Positions 658 to 61,445 of a DNA stretch of 64,000 bases are shown here, in pieces. The stretch's first letter is position 1, and every line of letters begins with the position of its first letter. Both the position numbers and the translations under genes were made by a program. Below the pieces are notes generated by a model. The model did no database searches, was not told the origin of the DNA, and saw only the letters and a program-made list of their open reading frames with translations. Origin of the DNA: Acidimicrobiia bacterium (lineage in GTDB: Bacteria > Actinomycetota > Acidimicrobiia > Spongiisociales > UBA5794); assembly GCA_030066755.1 (NCBI GenBank), contig JASJAX010000008.1, forward strand, positions 13,958-77,957. Direction: 5' to 3'.

Positions 658-1755
658 ATGGCTATTGAGGTACGGAAGGTCGTTCTCGAGAGTGTGAGTG
701 ACGCATCGGGCTTGGCCGAGCTCATCGACAAGGGTGTGTTCGAGGCGGACGGCGTCATCGCCGTCGTCGGCAAGACCGAGGGCAACGGCGGCGTCAACGA
801 CTTCACCCGGATCCTCGCCGATCAGGCATTCCGCAAGGTGTTGATGGAGCGGGGGACCCGTCCCGAAGAGGAAGTTGCCGAGATCCCGATGGTGTGGTCC
901 GGGGGCACCGACGGCATCCTGTGTCCCCATGCGACCGTGTTTGCGCGTGTCGACGACAAGGAACCGGCCTCGGATGAACCGCGGCTGGCCGTGGGCTACG
1001 CCATGAGCGACACGATCCTCCCGGAGGACATCGGCCGGCCCGCCATGGTGGAGAAGGTAGCCGAGGGCGTGCGGCGAGCCATGGGCGAAGCCGGCATCAC
1101 GGATCCGGCCGACGTGCATTACGTCCAGACGAAGACTCCGTTGCTCGTCATGGAGACGATCAACGATGCGAAGGCACGAGGCCACACCGTGTTCACCGAG
1201 GATCCGCTGGAGTCGATGAACGTGTCCAACGGCACGTCGGCACTCGGCATTGCCGTTGCGCTCGGTGAGATCGATATGCCGTCGGCCGAGCAGATCGGCC
1301 ATGACCTCAGCCTGTTCTCGTCGGTGGCCTCGTGCTCGTCCGGCGTCGAACTCGATCAAGCCCAGACCGTCGTCGTGGGGAATGCGCCCGGCGCCGGTGG
1401 CCGGTATCGCATCGGCCACGACGTCATGAACGATGCGCTCGACTTCGAAGGGGTGTACCGAGCGATCCGCAACGCAGGCCTCGACCTGCCCGACCGTGCT
1501 CGGCCCGAGGACCTCGATGGACGTCTCGTCAATGTCTTCGCCAAGTGTGAGGCCGACCCCACCTCCCGCCTGCGAGGGCGGCGCCAAGTGTCCCTCGACG
1601 ACTCCGACGTGCACCACCACCGCCACATCAAGGGTGCAGTCGGCGGTGTGATCGCCGCTGCCATCAACGATGCGGCAGTGTTCGTCTCGGTGGCGGCACT
1701 CCATCAAGGTCCATCGGGTGGCGGACCCGTCGCCGCGATCGTCGATCTCGGCTGA
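658..1755 (+). CDS. Ring-opening amidohydrolase of the barbiturase / cyanuric acid amidohydrolase (AtzD/TrtA) family; candidate barbiturase
   Basis: 365 aa. The N-terminal motif [16 protein letters not shown] matches the AtzD/barbiturase signature (KTEGNGCVNDYTR in AtzD). An AAGGAG RBS lies upstream. The size is typical of this three-repeat fold. Confidence 0.75.
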
Positions 1756-2601
1756 TTGGTGACCGCACCGGCGGTTGAGCAGGCGGCACCGCCGGCACTC
1801 GTTGAGGTGCCGGCGGTGGCCAGCCTCGCCGTGAGAGCCCTGGTCGCCGGACGACGCAGACGGTTCGGGGTGCTTGGAGCCTCGACCCACGCTGTGTGGC
1901 TCGACGGAGGTCACGACGTGCTCGTGCTTTCGACCCGCGATGCGACCCGGCTGCCCAACAGCGTGGAGCTGCCCTTCGATGCAGACCGAGCGTTGATGGC
2001 GAGTATTCCGCCCGGCGACACGATGCAGGTCGGCGGCGGTTTTGTCACCGGTGGACCGCTGACCGTGCGCGTCGTTCGTTGGTGGGATCCGCGGCTCGTT
2101 CTGGCGCCCGTCGCGCCGGGTGTGCTCGAGCGTCGTCTCAACGGCCTACCGGGCGAGGTCCCCGGGATCGACTCAGAGCCGCTGGCGTGTGCGATCCGGG
2201 CCCGGTGCCCCACCGGCGTACTCGACGCAGCAACCGAGCTGCTCGGTCTCGGGGACGGGTTGACCCCGGAGGCCGACGACATGGTGGCCGGCACACTGGC
2301 CGGAACTCGGTGTCTCGGTCACGCACTCGGTATGCGACGAAGCGTGGCTGCGCTCGACGCCGTTGCTCCGGTGCTGATGGCGACCGCAATGGCTCGTACG
2401 ACGACGTTCTCGGCCGCCTTGCTTCGGCACGCGCTGCGGGGCGAGGTTGCGGCTCCCGCTGCAGCTTTCCTCCGCGCCTTGGCCGGCCGTGGAGACGTTG
2501 TCGCTGCCCACACGCAATTGAGAAAGGTTGGACACTCGTCCGGTCGGGCGCTGGCGGCGGGCATCGTTCTCGCCGGGCGCACGCTGATCGCGACCGCATG
2601 A
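1756..2601 (+). CDS. DUF2877-like protein, the YlbF-type component of the FdrA/YlbE/YlbF trio
   Basis: About 280 aa and Ala/Gly-rich. It abuts the upstream stop and sits directly before the FdrA and DUF1116 homologs. The assignment rests on size plus context and is weaker on sequence. Confidence 0.4.
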   Translation: MVTAPAVEQAAPPALVEVPAVASLAVRALVAGRRRRFGVLGASTHAVWLDGGHDVLVLSTRDATRLPNSVELPFDADRALMASIPPGDTMQVGGGFVTGGPLTVRVVRWWDPRLVLAPVAPGVLERRLNGLPGEVPGIDSEPLACAIRARCPTGVLDAATELLGLGDGLTPEADDMVAGTLAGTRCLGHALGMRRSVAALDAVAPVLMATAMARTTTFSAALLRHALRGEVAAPAAAFLRALAGRGDVVAAHTQLRKVGHSSGRALAAGIVLAGRTLIATA

Positions 2602-2617
2602 TTGAAGGAGATGCCAG

Positions 2618-4054
2618 ATGATCGCTCGGGTCGAGGTTCAGCCCGGTCGGTACCACGACTCGGTGCGCCTGATGCAGGCCAGCAAGGTGTTGCAGGAGCT
2701 TCCCGGGATCGCCGACGCCCTCGTTGCCATGGGGACCGAGCTGAACCTCAGTCTCCTCGCCGACATGGGTTTCGATGCCGACGCTGCGGCGGGTGCGGGT
2801 CCGAATGACCTGTTGCTCGCGGTCAGGGCGGAGAACGACCAGGTGATGGAAGCCGCCCGACTCGCGCTCGAAGCCGCGTTGTCCGCGAAGCCGGTTGCGT
2901 CCGGGGGTCTGGATGGACCGGAGCCGCGCACCGTAGGTTCCGTAGCCGCACGAAGCGACGCGAACGTGGCATTGCTGTCGATGCCGGGAGAGCATGTGTT
3001 CGTCGAAGCGATGGACGCGCTCGACGCCGGCCTCCACGTGATGATCTTCAGCGACAACGTTCCTCTCGAGCAGGAGATTGCGCTGAAGGCCGCCGCCTCC
3101 AACCGGGGGCTGCTCGTCATGGGGCCGGATTGCGGCACGGCCATCGTCGGCGGTGTTGGCCTCGGGTTTGCCAATGCGATGCAACCCGGACCGGTCGGCA
3201 TCGTGGGTGCTTCAGGCACGGGCATTCAAGAGCTGTGCTGCCTGCTCGACGACGCCGACGTCGGCGTCACCCATGCACTCGGTACCGGCAGTCGAGACCT
3301 CTCTGAGTCCGTGGGCGCAGTCTCCACTCTGCAGGCGCTCAGCGCACTCGACACCCATCCACCAACGGAGCTGATCGTGGTGATCTCGAAGCCCCCCGCG
3401 GCGTCCGTTGCAGCGCGAGTCCGGGGAGCAGCCGCTGCTTGCAGTACGCCCACTGTCGTCACCTTCATGGGAGAAACCACGATCGAAGAGGGCGCTGCCG
3501 AGGTGTTGATGCGGCTCGGGGTCCCCGAGCCTGCGTATCGCTCGTGGGACTCCGGAGGTGGTCCGGTGCGACAGGGAACGATCCGAGGGCTGTTCTCCGG
3601 AGGAACGCTCCGCGACGAAGCGAGGTTCATCGCCATGGCCGAAGTCGGCGAGGTCGGCACGGTCGAAACCGCAGACGGTCACTGTTTCGTCGACTATGGG
3701 GACGACGAGTACACCAAGGGTCGTGCCCACCCAATGATCGACCAAACGGTGCGGCTCGATCGGCTGGCTGCCGCTGCCGATGATGCAACCATCGGCGTCA
3801 TCCTGATGGACGTCGTGCTCGGCTACGGCGCCAACCCGGACCCGGCATCCGAGCTCACCCCGATGATCCAGCGGGCAACGGACGCAGGAGCCGCCGTGGT
3901 GGTGTCGCTCTGCGGCACGCGGGGCGACCCGCAAGGCCGAGACGAGCAAGCCGCCGCACTCAACGGCGCCGGAGCGTCGGTGTGGCTCTCCAATGCCGCG
4001 GCCGCCCGTGAAGCCGTGCGCGTCTTCGCGGCGACGAACGGAGGCACGACGTGA
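2618..4054 (+). CDS. FdrA-family protein (succinyl-CoA-synthetase-alpha-like CoA-binding/ligase-CoA domains)
   Basis: The N-terminal MIARVEVQPGRYHDSVRLMQASK.. resembles the FdrA start. An SCS-alpha-like block VMGPDCGTAIVGG..GIVGASGTGIQEL is present. AAGGAG RBS upstream; GTGA overlap with the next gene. Confidence 0.65.
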   Translation: MIARVEVQPGRYHDSVRLMQASKVLQELPGIADALVAMGTELNLSLLADMGFDADAAAGAGPNDLLLAVRAENDQVMEAARLALEAALSAKPVASGGLDGPEPRTVGSVAARSDANVALLSMPGEHVFVEAMDALDAGLHVMIFSDNVPLEQEIALKAAASNRGLLVMGPDCGTAIVGGVGLGFANAMQPGPVGIVGASGTGIQELCCLLDDADVGVTHALGTGSRDLSESVGAVSTLQALSALDTHPPTELIVVISKPPAASVAARVRGAAAACSTPTVVTFMGETTIEEGAAEVLMRLGVPEPAYRSWDSGGGPVRQGTIRGLFSGGTLRDEARFIAMAEVGEVGTVETADGHCFVDYGDDEYTKGRAHPMIDQTVRLDRLAAAADDATIGVILMDVVLGYGANPDPASELTPMIQRATDAGAAVVVSLCGTRGDPQGRDEQAAALNGAGASVWLSNAAAAREAVRVFAATNGGTT

Positions 4055-5457
4055 GCGATCTCGACCAACTCCTCGACACTGAGGCATCGGTTGCAGCAGT
4101 CGGCACCGAGATGCTCGCTGCGGCCATCGATCAGCAGGGTGCCGCAGTTCACCGTGCCGATTGGCAACCACCGACACCGGGAACCGCGGCCGCGCTGGCG
4201 CGGCTCGCAGCAGGTGGGAGTACGGCCGAAGCGAACTCGACCGCCTTGACCCGAATGCTGGCCGTTCGGCCACAACTCACCGACGTCAGCACGGCGATCG
4301 AGGTGATCCCGGGCATGACCGAGCGGACGTTCCTCCACGCCGGTCCACCTCTCGAATGGGAACGCGCCAGCGGGCCGACGCGCGGAGCCCTCATCGGCGC
4401 CCTCATCTACGAGGGTCTGGCAGCCGATCCAAGTGAAGCTGAGGCGATTGCGGCGGCCGGCGAGATCGAGCTGTCACCGTGCCATCATCATTCGGCCGTT
4501 GGACCGATGGCCGGCGTCACGTCTGCGTCGATGCCGGTTGCGGTGGTCGAAGATGCTGCCGGCGATGGTGTGGCGTACTCAACGCTCAACGAAGGACTCG
4601 GGAAGGTCCTTCGATACGGTGCGTTCGCCGCGGAAGTCATTGAACGGTTGCGCTGGATGCAAGAGGTCCTCGGACCCGTACTCGGCGCAGCCCTGCGCAG
4701 CAGGGGACCGATCGGCCTCCAGTCGTTGATCGCGCAAGCGCTGCAGATGGGCGACGACGGCCACAATCGCAATCGGGCCGTGACCTCGCTGTTCCTGCGT
4801 GAGATCGGAGGTGCGCTCGTCGACGGAGCGGACGCTCCGGTGACCGACCGCAAGGCCGTCTTCGAGTTCATCGACGGCAACGACCACTTCATGCTCAATC
4901 TCGTCATGGCCGCCGGGAAGCTCGGGTCCGACGCCGCCGCCGGCGTAGCGGCATCGAGCTTGGTGACCGTCATGGCTCGGAACGGAACCGACTTCGGGGT
5001 TCGGCTGTCGGGAACGGGGGATGCCTGGTTCACGGCGCCGGCTCCGCCGGTTGATGGGCTCTACCTCGGCGCCTTCACGGAAGATGACGCCAGCCCGGAC
5101 ATCGGAGACTCGACGATCACGGAGACGGTCGGTCTCGGAGGCTTTGCGATGGCGGCGGCCCCGGCCATCGTCGGCTTTGTCGGCGGCACGGCTGCAGGCG
5201 CCGTTCGTCGCACCCTGGCGATGTACGAGATCACGCTCGGAGAGCACCCGGCGTATCAGATCCCCATGCTCGAGTTCCGTGGAACCCCCGTCGGGATCGA
5301 TGCGGCGCTCGTTGTGCGGACCGGAATCCGACCTCAGATCAACACGGGGGTTGCCGGCAAGGTCCCGGGCACCGGCATGGTCGGTGCCGGGTTGGTTGAA
5401 GCCCCCATGGAATGCTTTACAGAAGGTATAACTGCCCTAGCGGAGAGATTGGAGTAG
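4051..5457 (+). CDS. DUF1116 (YlbE-like) protein
   Basis: 468 aa. Its start overlaps the FdrA stop (GTGA), and it sits in the conserved position between the FdrA homolog and the next operon genes. Confidence 0.5.
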   Translation: MSDLDQLLDTEASVAAVGTEMLAAAIDQQGAAVHRADWQPPTPGTAAALARLAAGGSTAEANSTALTRMLAVRPQLTDVSTAIEVIPGMTERTFLHAGPPLEWERASGPTRGALIGALIYEGLAADPSEAEAIAAAGEIELSPCHHHSAVGPMAGVTSASMPVAVVEDAAGDGVAYSTLNEGLGKVLRYGAFAAEVIERLRWMQEVLGPVLGAALRSRGPIGLQSLIAQALQMGDDGHNRNRAVTSLFLREIGGALVDGADAPVTDRKAVFEFIDGNDHFMLNLVMAAGKLGSDAAAGVAASSLVTVMARNGTDFGVRLSGTGDAWFTAPAPPVDGLYLGAFTEDDASPDIGDSTITETVGLGGFAMAAAPAIVGFVGGTAAGAVRRTLAMYEITLGEHPAYQIPMLEFRGTPVGIDAALVVRTGIRPQINTGVAGKVPGTGMVGAGLVEAPMECFTEGITALAERLE

Positions 5458-5536
5458 GCGTCATCATGCCAGCGAAGGCTCCACCAGGCTTCACTGATTG
5501 CGTTTGCATCCTCAATCGGGTTGGGAGGAGATTTCC

Positions 5537-6421
5537 GTGGTGATTGCGCACGAGTTCGCATACGAACGTCCGACGACGCTCGAGGAAGCCACACGGGTGT
5601 TGACGGAACACTCCGGGTCGGTACGGCTCTTGGCTGGAGGCACCGATCTCGTCGCTTGGTTGCGCGACGACGCGGTCGCTCCGGATCTCGTGGTCGACAT
5701 CAAAGCGATCCCCGGTCTCGACACCATCGAGCTCGATGGTGACGAGCTTCACGTCGGATCGCTCGTGACCTTCACGGACTTGATCGAGTCCGAAGTAGTT
5801 GCCGAGCATGCTCCGTTGCTCATCGAAATGGCTGAGACCGTCGCGTCTCCCGGTATCCGGAATCGGGCCACCATGGTCGGCAATATCTGCTCGGCGGTCC
5901 CGTCGTGCGACGCGGGGCCGGTACTGATGGCCTACGACACGACCGTACATCTCATCGGACCGGGCGGCGCCCGGTCCGTTTCGATTGACGACTGGTTCAT
6001 CGGTCTGCGTGAGACGGCGTGTTCCGACGACGAGGTGGTCACCCACTTGACCCTTGCGCTGCGGCCGCACGGCGGGGTGTATGTGAAGCTGATGCGCTAC
6101 GGCGGAGAAGACCTCGCTCAGGCAGCCGTCGGCATCGTCGAGTACCCCGGCCACGAATACCGCGTCGCGTTTGGCGCAGTCGCCCCAACACCGATTCGGG
6201 CGCACCGCATCGAAGAAGTGCTTCGAGGGAAGCCGCTCGGTGAGGAAGTGATCGCTGATGCCGTGGCGTTGGTCCGCGACGAGATCAGCCCGATCACCGA
6301 CATGCGAGCCACCGCGGAGTACCGGGCACGGATGTGCGAGGTGATGCTCGAACGGGGGCTGGCCGCCTCCCACGAGCGACTCGAAGGCGCGGGACCTGCC
6401 TACGGCACTCGACTGATCTGA
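5537..6421 (+). CDS. FAD-binding subunit (CoxM/XdhB-like) of a xanthine-dehydrogenase-family molybdoenzyme
   Basis: A GGGAGGAG RBS lies 6 nt before the GTG. A CoxM-like FAD-binding (FAD_binding_5) and CO_dehydrogenase-flavoprotein C-terminal pattern is present (LLAGGTDL..). Confidence 0.8.
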   Translation: MVIAHEFAYERPTTLEEATRVLTEHSGSVRLLAGGTDLVAWLRDDAVAPDLVVDIKAIPGLDTIELDGDELHVGSLVTFTDLIESEVVAEHAPLLIEMAETVASPGIRNRATMVGNICSAVPSCDAGPVLMAYDTTVHLIGPGGARSVSIDDWFIGLRETACSDDEVVTHLTLALRPHGGVYVKLMRYGGEDLAQAAVGIVEYPGHEYRVAFGAVAPTPIRAHRIEEVLRGKPLGEEVIADAVALVRDEISPITDMRATAEYRARMCEVMLERGLAASHERLEGAGPAYGTRLI

Positions 6422-6431
6422 GAGGACGGCT

Positions 6432-6902
6432 ATGGAGCTATCACTGAACGTCAACAACGAGGAGTGGGCCCTCGACGTTGCTCCGGCAGACGTCCTCCTC
6501 GACGTGTTGCGGGAGCGGGTTGGTACGAAGAGCCCGAAGATCGGGTGTGAGCGCGGCGACTGCGGCTCGTGCACGATTCTGATCGACGGCCGCTCAGTGC
6601 GGAGTTGCCTGGTGCTCGCCGTCGAGGCCGAGGGACACGAGATCACCACGGTTGAAGGCATCGGCGCTGATCACCTGAGCGAGTTGCAGAACCTCTTCAT
6701 CTCGAACAATTCCTTCCAATGCGGATTCTGCGCTCCGGGAATCGTGTTGTCCGCCACCGAACTGTTGGCACGCAACCCATCGCCGAGTCGCCATGACGTC
6801 CAGGAGGCCCTGTCGGGCAACCTGTGTCGCTGCACCGGGTACGAGCCGATCATCGAGGCGGTCCTGGCTGCGGGTGAGCGGAACGAGGAGGTGTCCGCAT
6901 GA
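6432..6902 (+). CDS. 2Fe-2S iron-sulfur subunit (CoxS-like)
   Basis: Cysteine motifs CERGDCGSCT, CGFCAPG and CRCTGY are present. Confidence 0.85.
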   Translation: MELSLNVNNEEWALDVAPADVLLDVLRERVGTKSPKIGCERGDCGSCTILIDGRSVRSCLVLAVEAEGHEITTVEGIGADHLSELQNLFISNNSFQCGFCAPGIVLSATELLARNPSPSRHDVQEALSGNLCRCTGYEPIIEAVLAAGERNEEVSA

Positions 6903-9280
6903 CGACGACGTATCCGTTCGAAGCCGATTCGGTCGACGATGCGCTGACGGCCGTGGGCACGCCGGCGGTACGGATCGACGGCCTCGACAAGATCAGTGGA
7001 GCGGCACAGTTCGTCGATGATCTCGACTTCGGGCCCGACCTGCTGCACGGTGCGGTCGTCGAAAGCCCGCATGCGTACGCCCGGATCGTTTCGATCGACA
7101 CGAGCGCGGCCGAAGCGGCGCCGGGTGTCGTCAAGGTCATCACCGGCGAGGACTTCCCGTACAACTTCGGCATGTACATGGAGGATCGGTACATCTTCGC
7201 CCAGCACCATGTGCGCTTCGTCGGCGAGCAGGTCGCCGGTGTGATTGCCCGGACGCATCGCCAGGCGGTTCGAGCAGCCAAGCTGGTGGAGGTCGAATAC
7301 GAGGTGCTCGAGCCCCTGCTCGATCCCAAGGAGGCGGTCGCTGAAGACGCCCCGCTGATTCACCCGAACCTCGGTGACTACGCGCACGTGCCGTGGTTCT
7401 TCCCGAAGGCCGACACCAACATCGCCCACTGGCGAAAGATCCGCAAAGGTGACACGGAGAAGGCGTTCGCTGAGGCCGACTACGTACTCGAAGACACCTA
7501 TCGAGTGCCTCGCTACGCGCATTGCGCTATCGAGCCCCATGTCACAGTCGGCAAACTCGATCATGCAGGCCGACTGACGGTGTGGACGGCGTCGCAGTCG
7601 CCACACACGCAGCGGCACCTCTTCGCCGAAGCGCTGGCGCCACTCGGATTCGCCCACAAGGACGTACGGGTCATCACCCCGTACGTCGGGGGCGGATTCG
7701 GGGGGAAGGCCGGCGTGTCGATGGAGATCATCGGCGCAGCAATGGCGACGGCCGTCAAGGGGCACCCGGTCAAGCTGCGGTTCACCCGCGAGCAGGAGTT
7801 CTACAACACCTATCAACGTCAAGGTGTGGTCGCCGAACTCAAGGTCGGCGTGATGAACAACGGCACGATCACTGCGGTCGAGCACAAGCTCTACTGGGAC
7901 GCCGGCGCGTACGTCGAGTACGGCGCCAACGTCGTCAACGCCGCCGGTCTGTCGGCAACCGGGCCATATCGCGTCCCGAACATCAGCAACGATTCGTTGT
8001 GTGTGTACACCAACCTGCCACCGGGTGGTCCGTACCGCGGATTCGGGTACTCCGAATTCCACTTCGGTCTCGAGTCGCACATGGATCGCATCGCCGAAGC
8101 GATCGGAATGGATCCGGTTGATTTCCGCCGCAAGAACGCCATCGTCGAAGGCGACGAACTGTCGTACGGCGGCCATATGAACCCGTCGGGAATGATCGAA
8201 GCGATCGACAAGACGGCAGCGGCGATCGAGTGGGGCGTCGACGAGGAGTCGAAGAACCCGAACACCATCATGGGCAAGGGGGTCGCCCTGTTCTGGAAGG
8301 CCCCGGCGATGCCCCCGAACGCGTCGTCGGCGTCGTTCCTCAAGTTCAACGAGGACGGCAGCGTCAACGTGAGCGTGTCGGGCATGGAACTCGGTCAGGG
8401 GTACCTCACGGTGATGGCCCAGATCGCAGCTGAGATCCTTGGGCTGCCCGTCGAGATGGTCCGGGTCGAGACGCCCGACACGGATCGCAATCCGTACGAG
8501 TGGCAGACCGTGGCATCGCACGTGACCTGGAGCTCAGGTCTCGCCGTCGAGAAGGCTGCGATCGAAGCACGCGCCAAGATCTTCGAGGTCATCCACGAGG
8601 TCTACGGCTTCGAGGACGAGACGCTCTACCTCGAAGATCAGAAGGTGAAGTGCACCACGGATCCGGAGTTCGCCAAACCGCTCCGCGAGTTCGTGATCGA
8701 CGGTATCCAAACCGACGACGGCACCTGGCGGGGTGGTCCGATCATCGCCAGCGGCAAGTTCATGCCGGAGTTCACGAATGCGAACAGCGATCCGGAGACC
8801 GGTCAGGGTGGCCACCCCAACGTGCACTACACGGTTGGTGCGTGCGGCGTCCTGATCGAGATCGACAAGGAGACCGGCCGGATCTGGGTGCGTAAGGCGG
8901 CGCTCGCGGTCGATGCCGGGAAAGCCATCAACCCCGATCTGGTGAAGGGTCAGATCACCGGCGGCCTGGTGCAGGGACTGGCAACCGTCCTGTACGAGGA
9001 CATGCGCTTCGATGACGACGGCCGGCTCATGAACCCGAACTTCACCGACTACAAGATCCCGACGTCGTTCGACATTCCTGACGAGATGATCCCGATCATC
9101 GTCGAGGTCCCTCAGCCGGACGGCCCGTTTGGCGCCCGTGGCGTGGGCGAGCACACGATGATTGCCGCCGCACCCGTGATTGCGAACGCGGTCTACAACG
9201 CCCTCGGCGTCCGGATCAAGTCCATGCCCATCACCCAGGAGAAGATCGCGCTGGCCGTAACCGACCGGCACCACAACTGA
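6899..9280 (+). CDS. Molybdopterin-binding large subunit (xanthine dehydrogenase / aldehyde oxidase family); candidate uracil/thymine dehydrogenase catalytic subunit
   Basis: 793 aa. ATGA overlap with the FeS subunit. The GGGFGGK motif is present and the CODH-type AYRCSFR loop is absent. Confidence 0.8.
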   Translation: MTTTYPFEADSVDDALTAVGTPAVRIDGLDKISGAAQFVDDLDFGPDLLHGAVVESPHAYARIVSIDTSAAEAAPGVVKVITGEDFPYNFGMYMEDRYIFAQHHVRFVGEQVAGVIARTHRQAVRAAKLVEVEYEVLEPLLDPKEAVAEDAPLIHPNLGDYAHVPWFFPKADTNIAHWRKIRKGDTEKAFAEADYVLEDTYRVPRYAHCAIEPHVTVGKLDHAGRLTVWTASQSPHTQRHLFAEALAPLGFAHKDVRVITPYVGGGFGGKAGVSMEIIGAAMATAVKGHPVKLRFTREQEFYNTYQRQGVVAELKVGVMNNGTITAVEHKLYWDAGAYVEYGANVVNAAGLSATGPYRVPNISNDSLCVYTNLPPGGPYRGFGYSEFHFGLESHMDRIAEAIGMDPVDFRRKNAIVEGDELSYGGHMNPSGMIEAIDKTAAAIEWGVDEESKNPNTIMGKGVALFWKAPAMPPNASSASFLKFNEDGSVNVSVSGMELGQGYLTVMAQIAAEILGLPVEMVRVETPDTDRNPYEWQTVASHVTWSSGLAVEKAAIEARAKIFEVIHEVYGFEDETLYLEDQKVKCTTDPEFAKPLREFVIDGIQTDDGTWRGGPIIASGKFMPEFTNANSDPETGQGGHPNVHYTVGACGVLIEIDKETGRIWVRKAALAVDAGKAINPDLVKGQITGGLVQGLATVLYEDMRFDDDGRLMNPNFTDYKIPTSFDIPDEMIPIIVEVPQPDGPFGARGVGEHTMIAAAPVIANAVYNALGVRIKSMPITQEKIALAVTDRHHN

Positions 9281-9305
9281 GTCAAACCGAAGGAGAAGGA
9301 GCTGC

Positions 9306-10064
9306 ATGTCCGTCGACCTAGAGAAGATCCTTCGACCGGTTGACACCCCGATGAAGCCGTACGAGCCCAAGTACATGCTCTTGGCGAGCGGCGAAGCGGT
9401 GGTCGTCCGCCAGGTCGAACGTGACGAGATTCCCGATCTCTTGAAACACGTGGAGCCGCTCCTTCACGTGGAGCGCGACTTCTACGACGTGGTGGCGGCT
9501 CGGGTCTACTCCGAACTGCTGGCCCACTACCGGCACCGCTACCAGGACCAATACGTCCTCGCCGTCCAGATCGACGGCGAGCTCGCCGCCATCGTCAACG
9601 GACGCCAGGTCACGCCGAAGCTCGGTATGTCCCTGCACACGTTGGCCTTGCGGCGCGGCCTCCGGGTCGGGGCGCACGCGTTTGCCGCCAAGATGGAGTA
9701 CCACATCGACACGCTCGGCCACGACGAGGTGCTCATCGTCGCCGAGTCTCCGATCGGATTCCGTCGCTGGATGATCGAGTACAAGCTCGAGAAGCGATTC
9801 GACATCCCACACGAACTCGGTGGCGTGCCCTCGTGGGCGCTGACCCGCGAGTTGTTCGATCGGGCACGGTCGAGCCTCGTTGTAGGTCGCCGGCCGGTTC
9901 CCGATGAGCTGCTCGACAAGGCCATGGCGGCGATCTTGCCGCCGTCGGATCCGCCGACGCCACCGCTCGATCCGCTCGCCGCCACCCGGTCGATGTACGA
10001 CCCCACCGCGACCTCGTTGATGGCGCAGCGCTGGGAGATGGAAGGGAGGTCGGCCGATGCGTGA
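9306..10064 (+). CDS. Hypothetical protein, possibly a GNAT-like acyltransferase fold
   Basis: 252 aa, in-operon, with an 8-nt overlap with the downstream thiolase. I could not assign a family. Confidence 0.35.
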   Translation: MSVDLEKILRPVDTPMKPYEPKYMLLASGEAVVVRQVERDEIPDLLKHVEPLLHVERDFYDVVAARVYSELLAHYRHRYQDQYVLAVQIDGELAAIVNGRQVTPKLGMSLHTLALRRGLRVGAHAFAAKMEYHIDTLGHDEVLIVAESPIGFRRWMIEYKLEKRFDIPHELGGVPSWALTRELFDRARSSLVVGRRPVPDELLDKAMAAILPPSDPPTPPLDPLAATRSMYDPTATSLMAQRWEMEGRSADA

Positions 10065-11232
10065 CGTGTATGTCGCCGGGATCGGGATCACGACCTTCAC
10101 CCGGCTCGAATACCCGTTGTCGGAGATCGCGTCGTATGCGTCGATGATGGCCTTGAAGGACGCCGGCGTCACCGAGGTCGATCAGGTCTACGTCGCCAAC
10201 ATGGGGAGCCCTCGGGTGAACCACCAGACGGCCCTGGCCAGTGCGGTCGTCGACAGCCTGAGCCTGATGCCTGCAGGTGCGGCCGCGATCGAAAACGGGC
10301 CGGCCTCCGGCGCATCGGCCATCAAGGCCGGCTTCCAGGCGGTGGCATCGGGGATGGAGGACGTCGTTCTCGTCGCCGGCGTCGAACGGATGCGTGAGGT
10401 CAACAACCTCGAGGCCACGGACTTCGTCGCCACGCTGACGCATCCGCTCGCCGAGTACATCTACGGCGTCACTCTGCCGGCACACGCGGCGATGTTCACT
10501 CGGATGTACATGGACCGGTACGGCGTCACGGAACGCCATCTCGCCATGGTCGGCGTGAAGAACCAGAACGCAGCGCTCAACAACGTCTGGGCGCACCTGC
10601 AGCAGGAGATCACTCTCGAGGGAATCCTCGACTCGCCCGAAGCGATGACGAACAACCCGTACGTGGCCGAGCCGCTCCGGTTCTTCGACGCATGCCCGGT
10701 CTCCGACGGCGGGGCCGCCTTGGTGCTCGTCAGCGAGGAGAAAGCGCGAGAGCTGGGCCGTCCAATGATCAGGATCACCGGTGTTGGGCAAGCCACGGAC
10801 ACGCACGCAGTGTTCGAACGAGAGGATCCGACGGATCTGCTCGCCGTCCGCAAGGCGGCAAAGGATGCGTTCGCAATGGCCGGTCTCAGCCCATCGGACG
10901 TCGACGTGGCCGAACTCCACGATGCGTTCACCATCCTCGAGATCGTCGAGAGTGAAGAGGTGGGCTTCTTCCCGAAGGGAGAAGGCCACATCGCCCTGGA
11001 GAAGGGAGAGACCGCCCTCGGCGGTTCGATTCCGATCAATGTCGGCGGAGGTCTCAAGGGCCGCGGTCATCCGGTCGGCGCCACAGGCGTCGCGCAGGCG
11101 TGGGAGATCGTCACCCAGCTGCGTGGCGACGGCGAAGCCCGACAGGTGGAAGGTGCCCGCATCGGGTTCACCTGCAACTTCGGCGGTTTCGGCAACAACG
11201 TGGTGTGTCTCACCTTCGTGAGGGAGGACTGA
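10057..11232 (+). CDS. SCP-x/DitF-type thiolase-like protein (thiolase superfamily)
   Basis: 391 aa with a thiolase fold and C-terminal GFGNNVV..-type motifs. It is followed directly by a DUF35 partner, as is typical of SCP-x thiolases. Confidence 0.75.
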   Translation: MRDVYVAGIGITTFTRLEYPLSEIASYASMMALKDAGVTEVDQVYVANMGSPRVNHQTALASAVVDSLSLMPAGAAAIENGPASGASAIKAGFQAVASGMEDVVLVAGVERMREVNNLEATDFVATLTHPLAEYIYGVTLPAHAAMFTRMYMDRYGVTERHLAMVGVKNQNAALNNVWAHLQQEITLEGILDSPEAMTNNPYVAEPLRFFDACPVSDGGAALVLVSEEKARELGRPMIRITGVGQATDTHAVFEREDPTDLLAVRKAAKDAFAMAGLSPSDVDVAELHDAFTILEIVESEEVGFFPKGEGHIALEKGETALGGSIPINVGGGLKGRGHPVGATGVAQAWEIVTQLRGDGEARQVEGARIGFTCNFGGFGNNVVCLTFVRED

Positions 11233-11579
11233 TGGCTCGCGAGATCTACGCCTACAAGTGCCGCCTGTGCGGGACGCTCCACTACCCGTTCCGCATGGTG
11301 TGCAAGGAGTGCAAGCAGAACGACTTCTTCGAGTTCGACACCGTGCCGCTCCCGAAGGCGGGCACGCTCGTGACTTGGACGCGGGTGTACAACCTCCCGG
11401 CCCAGTACGAGGTGGCCACGCTCGGTCTCGGCATCGTCGAACTCGAGAACGGCATGCGGATGCTCGGACAGCTGGAGATCAGTGAGCCCGAGCTCGGTAT
11501 GGCAGTGATCGGCAACGTCGAAGTGGTGCGGAAGGAGCCGTACGACGACTACTACGGGATGGTGTTCAGGGCAGCCTGA
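11233..11579 (+). CDS. Zn-ribbon / OB-fold DUF35 protein (thiolase partner)
   Basis: A CxxC...CxxC zinc ribbon (CRLCG...CKEC) precedes an OB fold. The start is adjacent to the thiolase stop. Confidence 0.75.
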
Positions 11580-11629
11580 GCGATAGGAAGCGTTGGGCAA
11601 ACAGACAGCAAGCGGGAGAGGAAGGGTCT

Positions 11630-12871
11630 ATGCAACTCACGATGCAGAAGAAGGTGGTGCTGGGTCTCCAGCACACCATCGCCATGTTCGGAGCAACGGT
11701 GCTTGTACCGCTGCTCACCGGGCTGAACCCCTCGGTGGCACTGATCGCCGCAGGTGTCGGAACGTTGCTGTTCCACCTGGTGACGAAGCAGATGGTTCCG
11801 GTGTTCCTCGGATCGTCGTTCGCGTTCATTCCACCGATCGTGCTCGGCGTCGAACGCGGCTACTCATGGGCGGCCATCGGAGCCGGCATTGTCGGTGCGG
11901 CGGTGATCTATCTCACGATGTCCATCATCGTCACGTTCGTCGGCCATGACATCGTGCGGCGGATCTTCCCGCCGATCGTCACCGGACCGGTCATCACGGT
12001 GATCGGTATCACCTTGGCTCCGGTTGCCATCGGGATGGCCGAAGGAACCTGGTGGTTGGCCATTGTCACGCTGGCGGCGACGTTGATCGCGGCGGTGTTC
12101 TTCAAGGGCCTGTTCAAGATGCTGCCCATCTTGACGGGAGCCATCGTCGGCTACCTGACGGCGGCGATCTTCCTCGAGGAGTTCGACTTCTCGCCGGTAG
12201 GGGACGCCGACTGGATCGGATGGCCGGAATTCACGTGGGGTCTCGGCAACATCGAATGGGCGGCGATCGCCCTCATTGCCCCGATCGCATTCGTGACGAT
12301 GATCGAGCACGTCGGCGACATCCTCGCCAACGGCCGGGTGGTTGGGAAGGACTTCTTCGACGAGCCTGGGCTCAACCGGACACTGTTGGGCGACGGTATC
12401 GCCACCATGTTTGCCGGGCTGGTTGGCGGTCCGCCGAACACGACGTATTCGGAGAACACCGGTGTCCTGGCCGTGACCAAGGTCTACGACCCGTTCATCA
12501 TTCGCATCGGCGCAGTGTTCGCCATCCTGCTGGGTCTGATCCCGAAGCTGGCGGCGATCCTCCAGACCGTGCCGGTTGCGGTGCTCGGTGGCCTCTCGAT
12601 CGTGCTGTTCGGCATGATCGCTGCCGTCGGCATGCGCACGCTGGTCGAAGCGCAGGTCGACTTCAAGAAGAGCCGCAACATGATCGTGGTCGGCCTCATC
12701 CTGGTCTTCGGCCTCGGTGTCAGTGGATTGTCGACGCCGCTCGCCATCGGTGATGTGGCGATCTCGGGTCTCGCGCTGGCCGCCGTCATCGGTGTCGCCG
12801 CAAACCTGATCCTGCCGTTGACCGAGGAGGACGAGGAAGTCGCACTGCCCGCCGACGAAATGGTGTCGTAG
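11630..12871 (+). CDS. NCS2-family nucleobase permease, UraA-like uracil permease
   Basis: Long stretches are nearly identical to E. coli UraA (LGLQHTIAMFGATVLVPLL, GSSFAFIPP, TYSENTGVLAVTKVY, FAILLGLIPKLAAILQTVP). Confidence 0.85.
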   Translation: MQLTMQKKVVLGLQHTIAMFGATVLVPLLTGLNPSVALIAAGVGTLLFHLVTKQMVPVFLGSSFAFIPPIVLGVERGYSWAAIGAGIVGAAVIYLTMSIIVTFVGHDIVRRIFPPIVTGPVITVIGITLAPVAIGMAEGTWWLAIVTLAATLIAAVFFKGLFKMLPILTGAIVGYLTAAIFLEEFDFSPVGDADWIGWPEFTWGLGNIEWAAIALIAPIAFVTMIEHVGDILANGRVVGKDFFDEPGLNRTLLGDGIATMFAGLVGGPPNTTYSENTGVLAVTKVYDPFIIRIGAVFAILLGLIPKLAAILQTVPVAVLGGLSIVLFGMIAAVGMRTLVEAQVDFKKSRNMIVVGLILVFGLGVSGLSTPLAIGDVAISGLALAAVIGVAANLILPLTEEDEEVALPADEMVS

Positions 12872-12897: not shown

Positions 12898-12930
12898 GAG
12901 AAGGGGAACCGGGCACCGGTTCCCCTTCTC
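12898..12930. terminator. Perfect 15-bp inverted repeat (GAGAAGGGGAACCGG-gca-CCGGTTCCCCTTCTC) between convergent genes; likely a bidirectional terminator
   Basis: Direct reading. It lies between the permease stop (12871) and the selenoprotein stop (12941). A T-rich run follows on the minus strand. Confidence 0.7.
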
Positions 12931-12940
12931 GCGTCGCGAA

Positions 12941-13933
12941 CTAGCGGGCGACGTTTCCGGCTCGCCACGGTTCGTCGAGTTCGACAACCGTGGCGCCGGA
13001 GGGAGCGTTCTCGAGTAACTCCAATGCGGACGAGATGACCCGGCGTTGGCGATCCCGATCGCCGGATGCCCCCAAGGGTCGTCCCATCGGATGTTGCGTG
13101 ATCAGCGTGCGGGGGAGACGCATGACCTCGGCGACGTGCTTGAACGCACGCACGAACACCGACACCGTCGGAATCCCAGCACTCTCGAAGGCTCTGGCGA
13201 CGTGTCCGACCGACACGTGGCACACCGGTCAGACGGGAACGAGCAACAGGACATCGATCGCATCGGACTGCAGCTGTTCGACCCAGCCCGGGATTGCCTG
13301 CTTCCGGAGCCGGCCCTGTGAGGTCGCACCGGTGAAGGAGTACATCGGCGAGCTGAGTTCACCGATGACCCCGTCGGCTTCGAGCGATTGCAGGATGCTG
13401 AGCGGGAATGCCACCTCTCGATCGTGCGACACACTGCGGACGTCATACCCACCATGGCGAACGCGTAGGTCGGTTGGTTCGAGGTCGGTTGGGATCGCAG
13501 AGAATTCCGGGGTGTCGCGTAGGAACTCACCGATTCGCTCCTCCGCTTCAGCCTGCGTCATGTTCTCCACACCGAACGGCTTCGGGTCGTCGCCCTCGGC
13601 GAAATGGCCCGAGCTCGTGAGCACTCCGACACGGCTCTCCGCCACGGGCTTCGCAAGCGGAGTGAACGGGGCATCGTCATACGCGTGGTTGCGACCGCTG
13701 CCCTCGTACCCACGGCGCTGCCACTCGAACACGAGCTGATGAATCGGGCTGATGTCGCCGTCGTCGAGACTGTGACCTACTTGCCACAACAGCTGGCGGA
13801 AGAACTCCCCGGCATCGTCGTCGGTGAGGGACTTCAGGAACTTGAAGGTGAGGTCGGACCGGGAGCCGTAGCTGAAGGAGTTCTTGAACTCTTCCAAGGT
13901 CTCGGCTGCGGGCGTGGCGTTCTCGTCGTTCAT
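12941..13933 (-). CDS. GrdB-like (glycine/sarcosine/betaine/proline reductase selenoprotein B family) selenoprotein with in-frame TGA (Sec) at 13229-13231
   Basis: Two track ORFs (13229..13933 and 12941..13225) are in the same frame and separated only by TGA. The read-through sequence ..DAIDVLLLVPV-U-PVCHVSVGHVARAFESAGIPTV.. matches the GrdB/PrdB U-x-x-C context. A hairpin sits 11 nt downstream. Confidence 0.65.
13200..13218 (-). ncRNA. SECIS-like stem-loop (ACGUGUC-GGUCG-GACACGU) 11 nt 3' of the in-frame UGA
   Basis: Direct reading on the mRNA strand. A 7-bp stem with a G/U-containing loop at the spacing expected for a bacterial SECIS. Confidence 0.5.
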
Positions 13934-14040
13934 GGTCGGGACGGTAATCGCCCGTTGTCCGCCGGCGCCGACAACCCGCCTCCCCAGGGTGTGCGGGCAC
14001 TACGCTGGCGGTGCCGGACCGGTGCTGCAGGGGAGACCAG

Positions 14041-15366
14041 ATGCGGGTCGTGATCGTAGGTGCCGGCCACGACGGCGCGTACCTCGCGGAACGACTCGTG
14101 GCCGAGGGCCAGGACGTGGTCGTCATCGAAATCGATGAGGCAAAGGCTGCCGCGCTGCAAGATCGACTCGACGTCCTCGTCATTGCCGGCAACGGGGCAA
14201 GCCCTGCCGTACTCAAGGACGCAGGAATCGAACAGGCCGGTCTCTTTCTGGCGGTTTCCGACCGCGATGGCGCCAACGTGATGGCGTGCCATTCGGCGAA
14301 GAACCTCGGGGCACGTCGCACGGTCGCACGGGTGGAGCACCCTGACCTGCGTGAGGTTTCGCCGGGACTCGGGGTCGACGTCATCATCGATGCCCGCCAA
14401 TCGGTGTCGCGTGAAGCTGCCGAGTTGGTCCGGTACATGGGGGTGTCCGAGATCGAACCGTTGGCGCAGGGGAGGTTGATGCTCGTCGGTGCCCGGATTC
14501 GTGTCGAGAGCCCTGCGCTCGGCAGAACGGTTGCCGAACTCCGATCGGAGTCCGCCGTTGATTGGGCCCTTGCAGCGCTGGTGAAGAACGGCGAAACCAA
14601 GGTCGGTCGCGGCAACGTCGTCTTCGACGAGGGCGATCACGCGGTGATGGTCGTGCATCCAGAGAACGTCAGGAAGGTAATGAACCTGATGGGCATCCCG
14701 CAGGTGCGCCCGCGCCGGTCGGTGGTGCTCGGTGGGACGAGTATCGCCGCATTGACTGCCGAGCGGATCCTGGCCCAAGGTCACGATGTGCTCATCGTCG
14801 AGCGTGACGCAGAACGGTGTGCGCTCCTCGCCAAGGAGTCGCGCGCACTCGTCCTCCAGGGTGATCCGGCGGACTCCGATGTGCTCGAACGGCTCGATCT
14901 CGGGTCCCACGATGTCGTGCTCGGGATGAGCGGCTACGACCAGGTGAATCTCATGGGCTGCATGCTGGCGAAGGCCATGGGAGCCGGGGCGACCATTGCC
15001 CGATTCGGCAAGGCGAGGTTGGCCCGTCTGCTCAAAGATGTCGGCGTCGACTCGATCGTGTCGTCACGGGTTGCCGCCGCCGACGCCATTCTCCGCTTCG
15101 TTCGCCGCGACCAGATCCTGTCGGTCTCAACGTTCATGGACACCGACGCAGAACTCATCGAGATCGAGGTCCAAGAGGGGACACCGGCGGCCGGGCAGAC
15201 GGTGCAGGGCATGCAGATGCCGGACGGCACGGTGCTGGCGGGGGTCGTTCGCGGGGGGACGGCGACCATCCCGACGGGAGCCACCCGGATCGAGGTGGGG
15301 GATCGGGTTGTGGTGCTCGCCGATCGGTCATCGATTGACATGGCAGAAGGGTTGTTCCTGCAGTGA
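14041..15366 (+). CDS. trkA: Trk system potassium uptake protein TrkA (two RCK/NAD-binding domains)
   Basis: MRVVIVGAGHDGAYLAERL.. Rossmann motif repeated in the second half. GGGGAG RBS upstream. Confidence 0.85.
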   Translation: MRVVIVGAGHDGAYLAERLVAEGQDVVVIEIDEAKAAALQDRLDVLVIAGNGASPAVLKDAGIEQAGLFLAVSDRDGANVMACHSAKNLGARRTVARVEHPDLREVSPGLGVDVIIDARQSVSREAAELVRYMGVSEIEPLAQGRLMLVGARIRVESPALGRTVAELRSESAVDWALAALVKNGETKVGRGNVVFDEGDHAVMVVHPENVRKVMNLMGIPQVRPRRSVVLGGTSIAALTAERILAQGHDVLIVERDAERCALLAKESRALVLQGDPADSDVLERLDLGSHDVVLGMSGYDQVNLMGCMLAKAMGAGATIARFGKARLARLLKDVGVDSIVSSRVAAADAILRFVRRDQILSVSTFMDTDAELIEIEVQEGTPAAGQTVQGMQMPDGTVLAGVVRGGTATIPTGATRIEVGDRVVVLADRSSIDMAEGLFLQ

Positions 15367-39077: not shown

Positions 39078-39410
39078 GTGGAGCTTCCCGAACGTATCGA
39101 AGTCGAGGGTGGCGACGAGGTCATCCTCACCTGGGCGGATGGACACGTCGGTCGTCTGTCCGCAGCGGAGCTGCGTGCCGCCTGCCAGTGTGCGTCGTGC
39201 CGTGAGCCGGATGGCATGCGTCGAACAACGGAAGTCTTGGCCGGGGCGGTTCCCGTCACGATCGCCGAAGCCAAACTCGTCGGTGGATATGCGATCAACT
39301 TCGTCTTTGCCCCGGAAGGCCACGGGACTGGGATCTATCCCTTCACCGGGTTGCGGAGCCTCAGCGAAGCGATGCAGGAAGCGGCTGACACCGGGGACAC
39401 CAGTACGTGA
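39078..39410 (+). CDS. DUF971-like small protein (gamma-butyrobetaine hydroxylase N-terminal-like domain)
   Basis: A pattern of about 110 aa, ..ILTWADGHVGRLSAAELRAACQCASC.., typical of DUF971. Confidence 0.5.
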   Translation: MELPERIEVEGGDEVILTWADGHVGRLSAAELRAACQCASCREPDGMRRTTEVLAGAVPVTIAEAKLVGGYAINFVFAPEGHGTGIYPFTGLRSLSEAMQEAADTGDTST

Positions 39411-40161
39411 GTCGTTCCCCGGCAGGGAGCCCGTCCATCTCGACCGGTGTCCGGCAACGGCGGCACGGCTTGCCACCTCGTCCGTAGACCCAGAGTGTGG
39501 CTCCGGGGCCGCGACGTCCCGTCGTAGACCGGTTGGGTCGATCCTTGTTGGCGATCAGCAGCCGGCGAGCGCGCTGCCCGAGCCTCTGCAGCGTGTCGTC
39601 GTCGAGCATGGCCGCCGGTGTCGCCGGATTGATACGTTCGAGGTAGAGCGTTTCGGACTTGTAGACGTTCCCGACTCCAGCCATCACGGTCTGGTTGAGG
39701 AGGAGGTCGGCTGCCGTCGCTGCTTCCGCGGCACGGGCCCGTCCGACAACGCGGTCCCAGTCGATCACATCGTGAATCAGGTCCGGCCCCAGATGGCGAA
39801 GCGCCGCCTCGACCTCTGCGTCCGGGGCAATCTGAACGGTCGGCGCCGCGAAACACACGGCAACCCAGTCGGTCGATTCGAGAACGACCCTCGCCTTGCC
39901 CGCAGAGGTGCGCCATCGTTCATCGGGTCGGTACCGGTGCCACGATCCGGTCATCTGGAGATGGGTACGCAGCGACCAGCCATGGTCGAACCCGATGATC
40001 AGGTGTTTGCCTCGTGCCCGTACCGAATCGACGACGTGGTCGACGAGGCGTTTGCCGTGAGCGATGACTGCCCGATGGGATCCGGCGACCTTGCGGATCG
40101 ATTGGCCCTCGAGCACGGCCAGCTTGGTTGCCGCCTGATGCAGCGTGTCGCCCTCAGGCAC
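39361..40161 (-). CDS. nei: Fpg/Nei-family DNA glycosylase (endonuclease VIII-like)
   Basis: N-terminal MPEGDT (catalytic Pro2), H2TH, and a C-terminal zinc finger CRRC..CPRC. Confidence 0.85.
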   Translation of the reverse strand: MPEGDTLHQAATKLAVLEGQSIRKVAGSHRAVIAHGKRLVDHVVDSVRARGKHLIIGFDHGWSLRTHLQMTGSWHRYRPDERWRTSAGKARVVLESTDWVAVCFAAPTVQIAPDAEVEAALRHLGPDLIHDVIDWDRVVGRARAAEAATAADLLLNQTVMAGVGNVYKSETLYLERINPATPAAMLDDDTLQRLGQRARRLLIANKDRPNRSTTGRRGPGATLWVYGRGGKPCRRCRTPVEMDGLPAGERLTYWCPRCQPLPASLR

Positions 40162-40164
40162 GGT

Positions 40165-56003: not shown

Positions 56004-56426
56004 ATGGACGATCTCCAAGTGACGCCCGACCACTTCATTCCGGCCAATGAGCTGGAGTGGCGGTTTGACACGTCTGGGGGGCCTGGGGGGCAGCATGCGA
56101 ACAAGGCTGCCACTCGGGTCGAGCTGCGTTTCGACCTCGGCCGGAGCGAGGTGTTTCCTGCCGATATGCGGCGACACATGCTCGACCAGCTCGGCAGTCG
56201 GGTTCGTGACGGCGTGGTCACGGTGTCCGTCGACGAGTCTCGCTCGCAGTACCGGAATCGGGTGACGGCCCGCCGGCGACTCGCCGAGCTTCTCGCCGAG
56301 TCGATGCGGATGCCGACTGCGAGGCGCCCGACACGTCCGAGCCGGGCCGCGAAGCGCCGTCGTAGCGAAGCCAAGCGGCGGAGATCGGAAACGAAACGAT
56401 TGCGGCGTCGCCCGGAGCTCGACTGA
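56004..56426 (+). CDS. arfB: Alternative ribosome-rescue factor ArfB (peptidyl-tRNA hydrolase, GGQ domain)
   Basis: GGQ motif SGGPGGQHANK with a basic C-terminal tail. Confidence 0.85.
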   Translation: MDDLQVTPDHFIPANELEWRFDTSGGPGGQHANKAATRVELRFDLGRSEVFPADMRRHMLDQLGSRVRDGVVTVSVDESRSQYRNRVTARRRLAELLAESMRMPTARRPTRPSRAAKRRRSEAKRRRSETKRLRRRPELD

Positions 56427-61393: not shown

Positions 61394-61445
61394 GGCCGGC
61401 AGGTTAGTGACGATACGGCACCAAAAAGCGCGCTGAGTGAGGCCG

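Follow-up and report, generated by a model that had tools for sequence, protein, structure and literature searches.

On the minus strand of the 64-kb stretch of DNA analysed here (the window), two adjacent reading frames make up one gene of 330 codons, the internal TGA of which very probably encodes selenocysteine. Comparison with relatives gives us high confidence that the product is a selenoprotein, 330 residues long and belonging to the GRDB (PF07355) superfamily, with PrdB as its nearest characterised relative and with the UGA read as Sec. The features on which this reading depends are the following.

12941..13933, minus strand: selenoprotein gene (PrdB-like), complete, with ATG at 13933..13931, Sec-UGA as codon 235 and stop TAG at 12943..12941
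330-residue product: helices at the N-terminus (about residues 1-90), then a PrdB-like alpha/beta core, homologues aligning over the whole length
13229..13231, minus strand: in-frame UGA, the probable U235 (TGA kept in relatives, TGC in full-length homologues, alignment with PrdB U151)
13220..13222, minus strand: codon of Cys238, the presumed resolving Cys of U-x-x-C (TGY invariant in 80 sequences; aligns with PrdB C154)
13200..13218, minus strand: core of the SECIS-like hairpin, with 7-bp stem ACGUGUC/GACACGU and apical loop GGUCG (pairing, covariation and synonymous constraint)
13196..13222, minus strand: extended putative SECIS, with a lower 3-bp stem (Cys UGY against Ala GCR) and a 1x1 internal loop below the upper stem (lower helix 90% paired in the family)
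12898..12930, no strand assigned: inverted repeat of 15 perfectly paired bp around a 3-nt loop, UGC, found by folding, between the convergent selenoprotein and permease genes
13934..14010, no strand assigned: divergent intergenic region of 77 bp common to the gene and trkA, in which the promoter would presumably lie

The reading frame, its relatives and its neighbours

The upstream ORF, 13933..13229 on the minus strand, comprises 234 codons and closes at the TGA 13231..13229, past which the same frame runs for 95 further codons to the TAG at 12943..12941 (the downstream ORF taken by itself has 94 codons). Both the coordinates and the common frame agree with the earlier note on this DNA, which had described two ORFs split by a single TGA at 13229-13231, and translation likewise yields the 330-residue read-through protein with ..VLLLVPV-U-.. 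and a U-x-x-C motif that it had proposed. The product reads ..AIDVLLLVPV-U-PVC-HVSVGHVARAFESAGIPTV.., with the motif LLLVPV-U-PVC-HVSVGHVAR, and the sequence spanning U235 is ..LLLVPV-U-PVCHVSVGHVAR..; C238 is the sole Cys of the protein, U235 and C238 being its only Sec/Cys residues. The composition speaks for coding sequence before and after the TGA, with GC3 of 0.79 and 0.76 in the two halves against GC2 of 0.45 and 0.52, in a window of 65.5% GC. One gene, not two, is supported by this coding GC3 in both halves together with the alignment of relatives across the TGA to about residue 324. Since TGA is the ordinary stop for 32 of the 46 genes called in the window, any read-through must be site-specific, and the codon has not been reassigned throughout the genome; when the window was scanned for further in-frame TGAs flanked on either side by coding signal, just adjacent genes or antisense artefacts came up.

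Membership of the GRDB superfamily is indicated by the Pfam model (PF07355), which gave 34.2 bits against a gathering threshold of 22, with residues 150-231 on model positions 263-344 of 347. The strongest match is to the PrdB model TIGR04483 (92.2 bits, E = 3e-26), where residues 90-320 lie on model positions 20-231 of 238, at a score well below the equivalog cut-off of 300. Other models of B proteins also remain below their cut-offs, namely TIGR01917 (55 bits against 602), NF040794/5 (52.7 and 43.6 against 800/775) and the broad B-protein subfamily TIGR01918 (49 against 65.45), as do the UGSC models PF24696 (18.2 against 25 bits, E = 0.003) and NF041046 (18.8 against 125, E = 0.001), both over residues 211-273. 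For direct alignment with PrdB we used a sequence of the C. difficile type that was accepted as PrdB on its score of 416 bits, end to end, on TIGR04483; BLASTP against this sequence gave E = 1e-23 with 29% identity over 183 residues, and set U235 opposite residue 151, C238 opposite C154 and RVRHGGYD opposite MVSHGGYD. The Sec position thus matches U151 of PrdB, the catalytic Sec, whose attack is directed at the alpha-carbon of D-proline attached to the PrdA pyruvoyl group (PMC11229817). The N-terminal ~140 residues are left unaligned to PrdB by BLASTP (the extra region amounts to ~90 residues by HMM), and they bear family-specific motifs such as E-x-F-K-[ND]-S-F-x-Y-G. Of the description 'GrdB-like' in the earlier note, the assignment to the GRDB superfamily and the U-x-x-C motif therefore stand, whereas the nearest relative is PrdB (92 bits) rather than GrdB (55 bits), and the UxxCxxC motif is missing.

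The gene is monocistronic, being convergent with a Xan_ur_permease gene (11630-12871), as the earlier note had said of a uracil permease, and divergent from trkA (14011-15366) of a trkA-trkH pair. A promoter scan of the 77-bp region 13934..14010 found no sigma-70-like match. The 15-bp hairpin that had been called a perfect terminator at the 3' end is real, but the repeat at 12930..12898 has no U tract and a consensus terminator scan gave no call; it probably serves as a bidirectional transcript end. No grd or prd gene was found by Pfam among the ~57 ORFs of the window, and none around relatives either, in keeping with the orphan status claimed for the gene. The wider neighbourhood was surveyed over ~195 related loci, of which ~113 had enough flank. 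Over the ~195 loci no conserved neighbour emerged, and among the recurrent families that were annotated none resembles PrdA or GrdE. The commonest neighbour, in 17 of the ~113 loci, is a class-I pyridine nucleotide-disulfide oxidoreductase, which in seven cases comes immediately after the gene and in the same orientation; an AhpD/CMD-type CxxC protein occurs in 12 of the ~113, and a CoA_binding_2 protein and an ArsM-like methyltransferase in 10 loci each. The notion of a conserved partner gene that would define function was rejected, since even the most frequent neighbour family reaches no more than 17/~113 loci. The two redox neighbours, both absent from this window, are a hint that would fit a Se-S cycle with a dedicated reductant, one loosely comparable to PrdC or TrxB of the characterised systems.

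Could the protein nevertheless serve as the true B subunit in a D-proline (or glycine/betaine) reductase, with prdA and prdC, or grdA, grdE and grdC, located elsewhere in the genome? The best HMM match, the homologous Sec and Cys, the common HGGYD and the label 'D-proline reductase (dithiol) PrdB', which JGI attaches to several relatives, would all accord with such a role. We regard it as very improbable, given the shortfall against both the equivalog model (92 against 300 bits) and the broad B-protein subfamily (49 against 65), an N-terminal extension (~90 residues by HMM, ~140 by BLASTP) that carries a separate invariant motif, the missing second Cys of GrdB, and a neighbourhood in which no family exceeds 17 of ~113 loci and the recurrent annotated ones are not PrdA- or GrdE-like. 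The hosts, too, are mainly MAGs of Acidimicrobiia and Chloroflexota, groups in which we know of no Stickland fermentation. Identity as bona fide PrdB or GrdB was rejected on the sub-cut-off scores, the extra N-terminus and the lack of partner genes in the window and in the flanks of relatives, and for GrdB also on the motif.

Conservation of the TGA codon and of the hairpin behind it

If the TGA encodes selenocysteine, the codon and its downstream frame would be expected to persist in relatives. With each GTDB species represented by a single genome, a scan turned up 187 relatives, the best 80 loci of which were analysed; all 80, from 80 species genomes and at least 7 phyla, carry TGA at this exact codon, and in all 80 it is followed by P[VIM]C[HY].SVGH.AR. 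The 80 loci comprise 41 from Actinomycetota (mostly Acidimicrobiia), 21 from Chloroflexota, eight that are Deltaproteobacteria-like, four from Gemmatimonadota, two each from Acidobacteriota and Pseudomonadota, one from Spirochaetota and one unclassified. An independent metagenome scan, in which the query was the downstream peptide alone with all third codon positions free, reached at least 119 contigs and gave 118 usable matches. Among those listed, the codon before the peptide is TGA in 116/118, TAA in 2/118 and TGC or TGT in 0/118. The two TAA copies represent the same decayed, frame-disrupted remnant and thereby provide an internal control, showing that TGA is not retained once the gene dies. 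An ordinary stop in close relatives was thus not what we found: TGA and the frame behind it are kept in the relatives examined (80/80, and 116 of the 118 listed metagenome matches). The downstream peptide is moreover the most conserved portion of the protein, and the two codons separating the TGA from the GTG 'start' of the downstream ORF are also conserved.

A protein search over 5.8 billion proteins returned 1283 relatives. Among the best 120 of these, 113 have 225-262 residues, the length that results if a gene caller takes the TGA for a stop, and seven are full length. Five full-length homologues (P0011, P0015, P0017, P0019 and P0025) carry Cys at the TGA column (CPVCHVSVGHVAR; CPVCHVS), so that the alignment places Cys exactly there and not elsewhere; one further full-length homologue has Trp at this column and another Arg. 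The DNA retrieved for four of the Cys forms shows TGC at this codon, and that of the other two non-Sec forms shows TGG and AGA. A metagenome scan for a Cys version of the exact motif gave 0 matches, and for this reason the Cys-form control used below is limited to four Cys sequences, complemented by the one Trp and the one Arg form.

The hairpin ACGUGUC-GGUCG-GACACGU occupies 13218..13200, separated from the UGA by 10 nt, within the codons for H-V-S-V-G-H-V. The earlier note had described a 7-bp stem with a 5-nt GGUCG loop starting 11 nt past the UGA; it is present as described (the stem begins at the 11th nucleotide), and in relatives it is both paired and covarying. Folded as a single sequence the region is unremarkable, the 60-nt fold giving z = 0.48 against dinucleotide shuffles; by stability the hairpin does not stand out from chance, and what makes it significant is solely the comparison with relatives. 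We therefore examined a gap-free alignment of the 80 species-genome sequences (78 distinct), together with 109 distinct sequences among the metagenome matches listed. Across the 78 distinct species-genome sequences 98.5% of the cells of the 7-bp stem are paired, and all seven pairs are present in 109/109 of the listed metagenome sequences. Compensatory changes occur 11 times at columns 15-31 (CG to UA), twice at columns 16-30 (GC to AU) and once at columns 18-28 (GC to AU), where, in locus L080, the peptide itself is altered, His becoming Tyr together with a change of GUG to GUA.

Synonymous codon choice follows the same pattern. Val+5 is GTG in 76/77 species-genome and 109/109 listed metagenome sequences, against a same-gene background of 40%; Gly+8 is GGR in 80/80 and in 109/109 of the listed metagenome sequences, against a background of 41% and a preferred codon GGC; and Ser+6 is never AGY in the species-genome set, nor in the 109 listed metagenome sequences. 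The lower 3-bp helix is paired in 90% across the species-genome alignment, the GCR codon at the lower-stem position making up 78% of Ala codons (74% of all 80 sequences) against a background of 47%; the window itself has GCC as its Ala codon, which limits the lower stem to two of the three pairs. In the apical loop the central GU (G22 and U23) is invariant, and the loop sequence is GGUCG in 37/40 Actinomycetota and CGUGG in 18/21 Chloroflexota and in 7/8 Deltaproteobacteria-like loci. The stem or codon rules are broken in at least two of the four Cys forms and in four of the six non-Sec forms (for example GGC in L088, and GUC and AUU in L089), with no such break in ~187 Sec forms; on counts assigned by eye from the sequences, Fisher tests give p = 3e-7 for the six non-Sec forms and 3e-4 for the four Cys forms. 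Rfam returned noise only, both when the whole window was searched at gathering thresholds and when the surroundings of the site were searched at permissive E-values, a null that is uninformative since bacterial SECIS elements are poorly covered there.

Conservation of the hairpin is, on the alignment, partly forced by the conserved HVSVGHV peptide, and one may ask whether the structure is altogether a by-product of the near-palindromic peptide H-V-S-V-G-H-V, the UGA being passed in some other way, such as near-cognate read-through to Trp or Cys. Retention of the peptide in the Cys forms, two of the four of which also keep the hairpin, and a stem stability that is not exceptional at this GC content both point in that direction. 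Against it, third positions left free by the peptide are fixed as the stem requires, one compensatory change (that of L080) alters the peptide, the constraint is relaxed in the non-Sec forms, and the spacing and the small G-containing apical loop agree with the description of bacterial SECIS elements (PMC1088965). We accordingly consider this explanation very improbable, and the hairpin a well-supported candidate SECIS. Least probable of all is a pseudogene or a pair of genes, in which the TGA would end a 234-residue protein and the 94-codon ORF would be independent or non-coding: public annotation does call the 234-residue product only, and 113 of the best 120 database relatives have that shortened length, but such lengths are expected of gene callers that read TGA as a stop, intact relatives always have TGA and never TAA or TAG (the TAA copies being visibly decayed), the downstream peptide is the most conserved part, the Cys homologues are continuous through the position, and conservation extends to the codons that lead from the TGA to the GTG 'start'.

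Structure, decoding and a proposed mechanism

The fold was approached through a structure model of the Cys homologue P0011, which is 56% identical to the window protein. The model (pLDDT 91, pTM 0.89) consists of four N-terminal helices followed by a Rossmann-like alpha/beta domain, and places the Sec position in a loop between the strand 225-229, which corresponds to LLLVPV, and the helix 235-248, with the equivalent of Cys238 at the start of this helix. As modelled, such a strand-loop-helix location would be the usual setting of a redox-active CxxC-type pair. A sequence search of the PDB gave no match, and no solved structure of a relative was found.

Decoding of the UGA as Sec calls for dedicated machinery. 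Pfam found no SelA, SelB or SelD among the ~57 ORFs of the 64-kb window, a tRNA scan of the same 64 kb found no tRNA and hence no tRNA-Sec, and scans of the window together with 211 related loci (1.8 Mb in all) likewise found no tRNA-Sec. One related locus, on an Anaerolineaceae contig (L026), carries, 6.4 kb from the family member, a selD gene that has its own in-frame TGA at the active site, so that at least that host decodes Sec. Sec machinery has also been reported in other Acidimicrobiia (bioRxiv 10.64898/2026.04.03.716425).

By analogy with the canonical bacterial pathway, a ribosome arriving at UGA235 would meet the hairpin 10 nt downstream, whose 7-bp stem and GGUCG loop with its conserved central GU would serve as the element recruiting SelB with Sec-tRNA(Sec); Sec would be inserted and translation would proceed to the TAG at 12943..12941. 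In the folded protein Sec235 would then act as the nucleophile, Cys238 would resolve the Sec235 adduct into a Se-S bond, and this bond would be re-reduced by a thiol or flavoprotein system. We infer that the Sec-x-x-Cys centre works like that of PrdB, and the protein seems to do without a pyruvoyl partner such as the PrdA or GrdE of its characterised relatives. On this basis we put forward, tentatively and as a possibility about which we are somewhat less than half convinced, that the family constitutes a self-sufficient selenoenzyme, in which the conserved N-terminal domain would supply the substrate site and either a dedicated flavoprotein disulfide reductase or an AhpD-like protein would regenerate the Sec235-Cys238 pair; genes for these two proteins adjoin family members in a minority of genomes only. 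Were the family indeed self-sufficient, it would represent a new selenium-dependent reductase activity on a small molecule, distributed over Acidimicrobiia, Chloroflexota and other environmental phyla, and one that almost always depends on Sec rather than on Cys. That the family is almost never swapped for a Cys form suggests that selenium is needed for its chemistry.

Comparison with known systems

The family is not new: it is widespread, usually mis-annotated and related to proline/glycine reductase protein B. A 'proline reductase PrdB' with pfam07355 and UxxC has ranked among the most abundant marine selenoprotein families in surveys since 2005 (PMC1088965, PMC2398784), the Sargasso Sea survey of 2005 listing 42 Sec forms against one Cys form (PMC1088965) and the GOS survey of 2008 listing 235 against 110 (PMC2398784). 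The gene in the window very probably belongs to this set, with which it was matched by descriptors rather than by sequences: both have pfam07355, UxxC and many more Sec than Cys forms, and they differ in that the marine set was filed under the enzyme name PrdB and the stand-alone subfamily was not separated. Since 'PrdB, UxxC, pfam07355' selenoproteins have been catalogued since 2005, the gene is real but not of a new kind. In the literature we found no study that separates or characterises a stand-alone PrdB-like subfamily.

What such a subfamily offers is, to begin with, an abundant and phylogenetically broad selenoprotein family to which neither substrate nor partner has been assigned. Database records end the gene and 113 of its best 120 relatives at ~230 residues, so that the active site is lost along with the C-terminal 95 residues, and the shortened annotation conceals the selenocysteine use of the host. 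Thus, on public MAG contigs that carry the identical gene, the 234-residue part is annotated alone and the 3' part is left intergenic, and NCBI names shortened relatives 'glycine/sarcosine/betaine reductase selenoprotein B family protein', while several relatives bear at JGI the PrdB label mentioned above. Biochemical work could well start from a member of Acidimicrobiia or Chloroflexota origin whose SECIS is clean, and a hairpin placed inside the codons of the active-site helix, with two loop types that follow lineage, would make a neat case for the co-evolution of SelB and SECIS under coding constraint.

The comparison with characterised enzymes may be drawn as follows. With PrdB (TIGR04483), the Sec subunit of the D-proline reductase of C. 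difficile and C. sticklandii, the window protein has in common a homologous alpha/beta core, a Sec/Cys U-x-x-C at homologous positions, the HGGYD and C-H..A/V..RA.E.AGIPT motifs and a hairpin after the Sec codon; it differs in lying far below the family cut-off, in its extra N-terminal region, in having no prdA, prdC, prdH or prdR near the gene or its relatives, and in its hosts, among which Actinomycetota, Chloroflexota and groups like them take the place of Stickland-fermenting clostridia. With GrdB, GrdF and GrdH, the substrate-specific B selenoproteins of the glycine, sarcosine and betaine reductases, it has in common the GRDB domain, a homologous C-terminal ~170 residues and the U-x-x-C motif, but the match covers only the last third of GrdB, the gene is without grdA, grdE, grdC and trxAB neighbours, and its motif is UPVCHVS, with Ser in place of the second Cys of UxxCxxC. 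The latter is given as the motif of GrdB (PMC13188914), reviews attributing UxxC or UxxCxxC to GrdB and UxxC to PrdB (PMC9312934, PMC13188914). To the UGSC proteins (PF24696/NF041046) there is a weak local similarity over the strand-U-x-x-C-helix, of a kind that the PrdB sequence used for the alignment also gives, yet both cut-offs are missed, the motif is UPVC and not UGSC, and the UGSC models span only 147-172 positions. Taken together, these likenesses and differences make a stand-alone PrdB-like protein within the GRDB superfamily the most fitting description.

Apical-loop versions and a decayed relative

In the alignment of the Sec/SECIS region (80 sequences from species-genome loci, the best 80 of 187 relatives), the apical loop of the hairpin lying 3' of the UGA occurs in two versions which track lineage (alignment columns 21-25; window 13207-13211, minus strand), such that GGUCG, the form in the window, is found in 37 of 40 Actinomycetota, whereas 18 of 21 Chloroflexota and 7 of the 8 Deltaproteobacteria-like genomes carry CGUGG. 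Between the two versions the Ser and Val codons change jointly at their third positions, UCG-GUC versus UCC-GUG, and the difference may reflect lineage-specific recognition by SelB.

Among the 118 usable metagenome matches listed, selected by the downstream peptide alone, the only cases lacking the TGA are two loci of identical sequence (L109, at ~3271, and L129). These represent a decayed remnant of the PrdB-like family, in which the TGA is replaced by TAA and numerous stops and frameshifts lie on either side.

Surroundings of the gene in the window

Next to the selenoprotein gene lies a run of plus-strand genes (658-12871), which looks like a cluster for oxidative pyrimidine/purine catabolism:

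658-1755, plus: AtzD/TrzD ring-opening amidohydrolase (barbiturase/cyanuric acid hydrolase family)
2618-4054, plus: FdrA-like CoA-ligase protein
4051-5457, plus: AllG
5498-9280, plus: xanthine-dehydrogenase-type hydroxylase, FAD, 2Fe-2S and Moco subunits
10057-11579, plus: thiolase-like protein and OB-fold protein
11630-12871, plus: uracil/xanthine permease

The spacer between two convergent genes contains an inverted repeat (12898-12930) whose 15-bp arms pair perfectly around a 3-nt loop; the consensus terminator scan made no call there because a U tract is absent on both strands.

The window further encodes:

9306-10061, plus: 252-residue ORF
39361-44574, minus: Lhr-type helicase (1469 residues), then Fpg/Nei-type DNA glycosylase
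48045-48806, minus: mycothiol-dependent MDMPI_N/DinB protein
53646-55868, minus: 741-residue ORF
56004-56423, plus: small RF-1-domain protein (ArfB-like)
60563-61555, minus: thioredoxin-TPR fusion protein, the sole thioredoxin-fold gene seen within the window

The 252- and 741-residue ORFs both show a clear coding GC3 signal and have no Pfam match at E <= 1e-5. The helicase and glycosylase genes share a frame and are separated by a single TGA, which was rejected as a recoding site, the two being ordinary neighbouring genes. The mycothiol-dependent protein points to an actinobacterial host.

Recurrent neighbours and selD among relatives

Four families recur near the PrdB-like gene, each in a minority of related loci and none of them present in the window: a pyridine nucleotide-disulfide oxidoreductase of class I (17 loci, directly downstream in 7 of them), an AhpD/CMD CxxC protein (12 loci), a CoA_binding_2 protein (10 loci, all on the same strand and directly upstream) and an ArsM-like SAM methyltransferase (10 loci). 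Example genes of these families are:

L182:815-2242
L021:3096-4343
L074:1790-3241
L065:4320-4883
L027:9546-9986
L066:1771-2574

An Anaerolineaceae MAG contig (L026) carries a selD homologue (13504-14532, minus) 6.4 kb from its PrdB-like gene. At its active site this homologue has a TGA in frame (SKCAG-U-ASK) and therefore encodes a Sec-containing SelD, which shares 37% identity with E. coli SelD.
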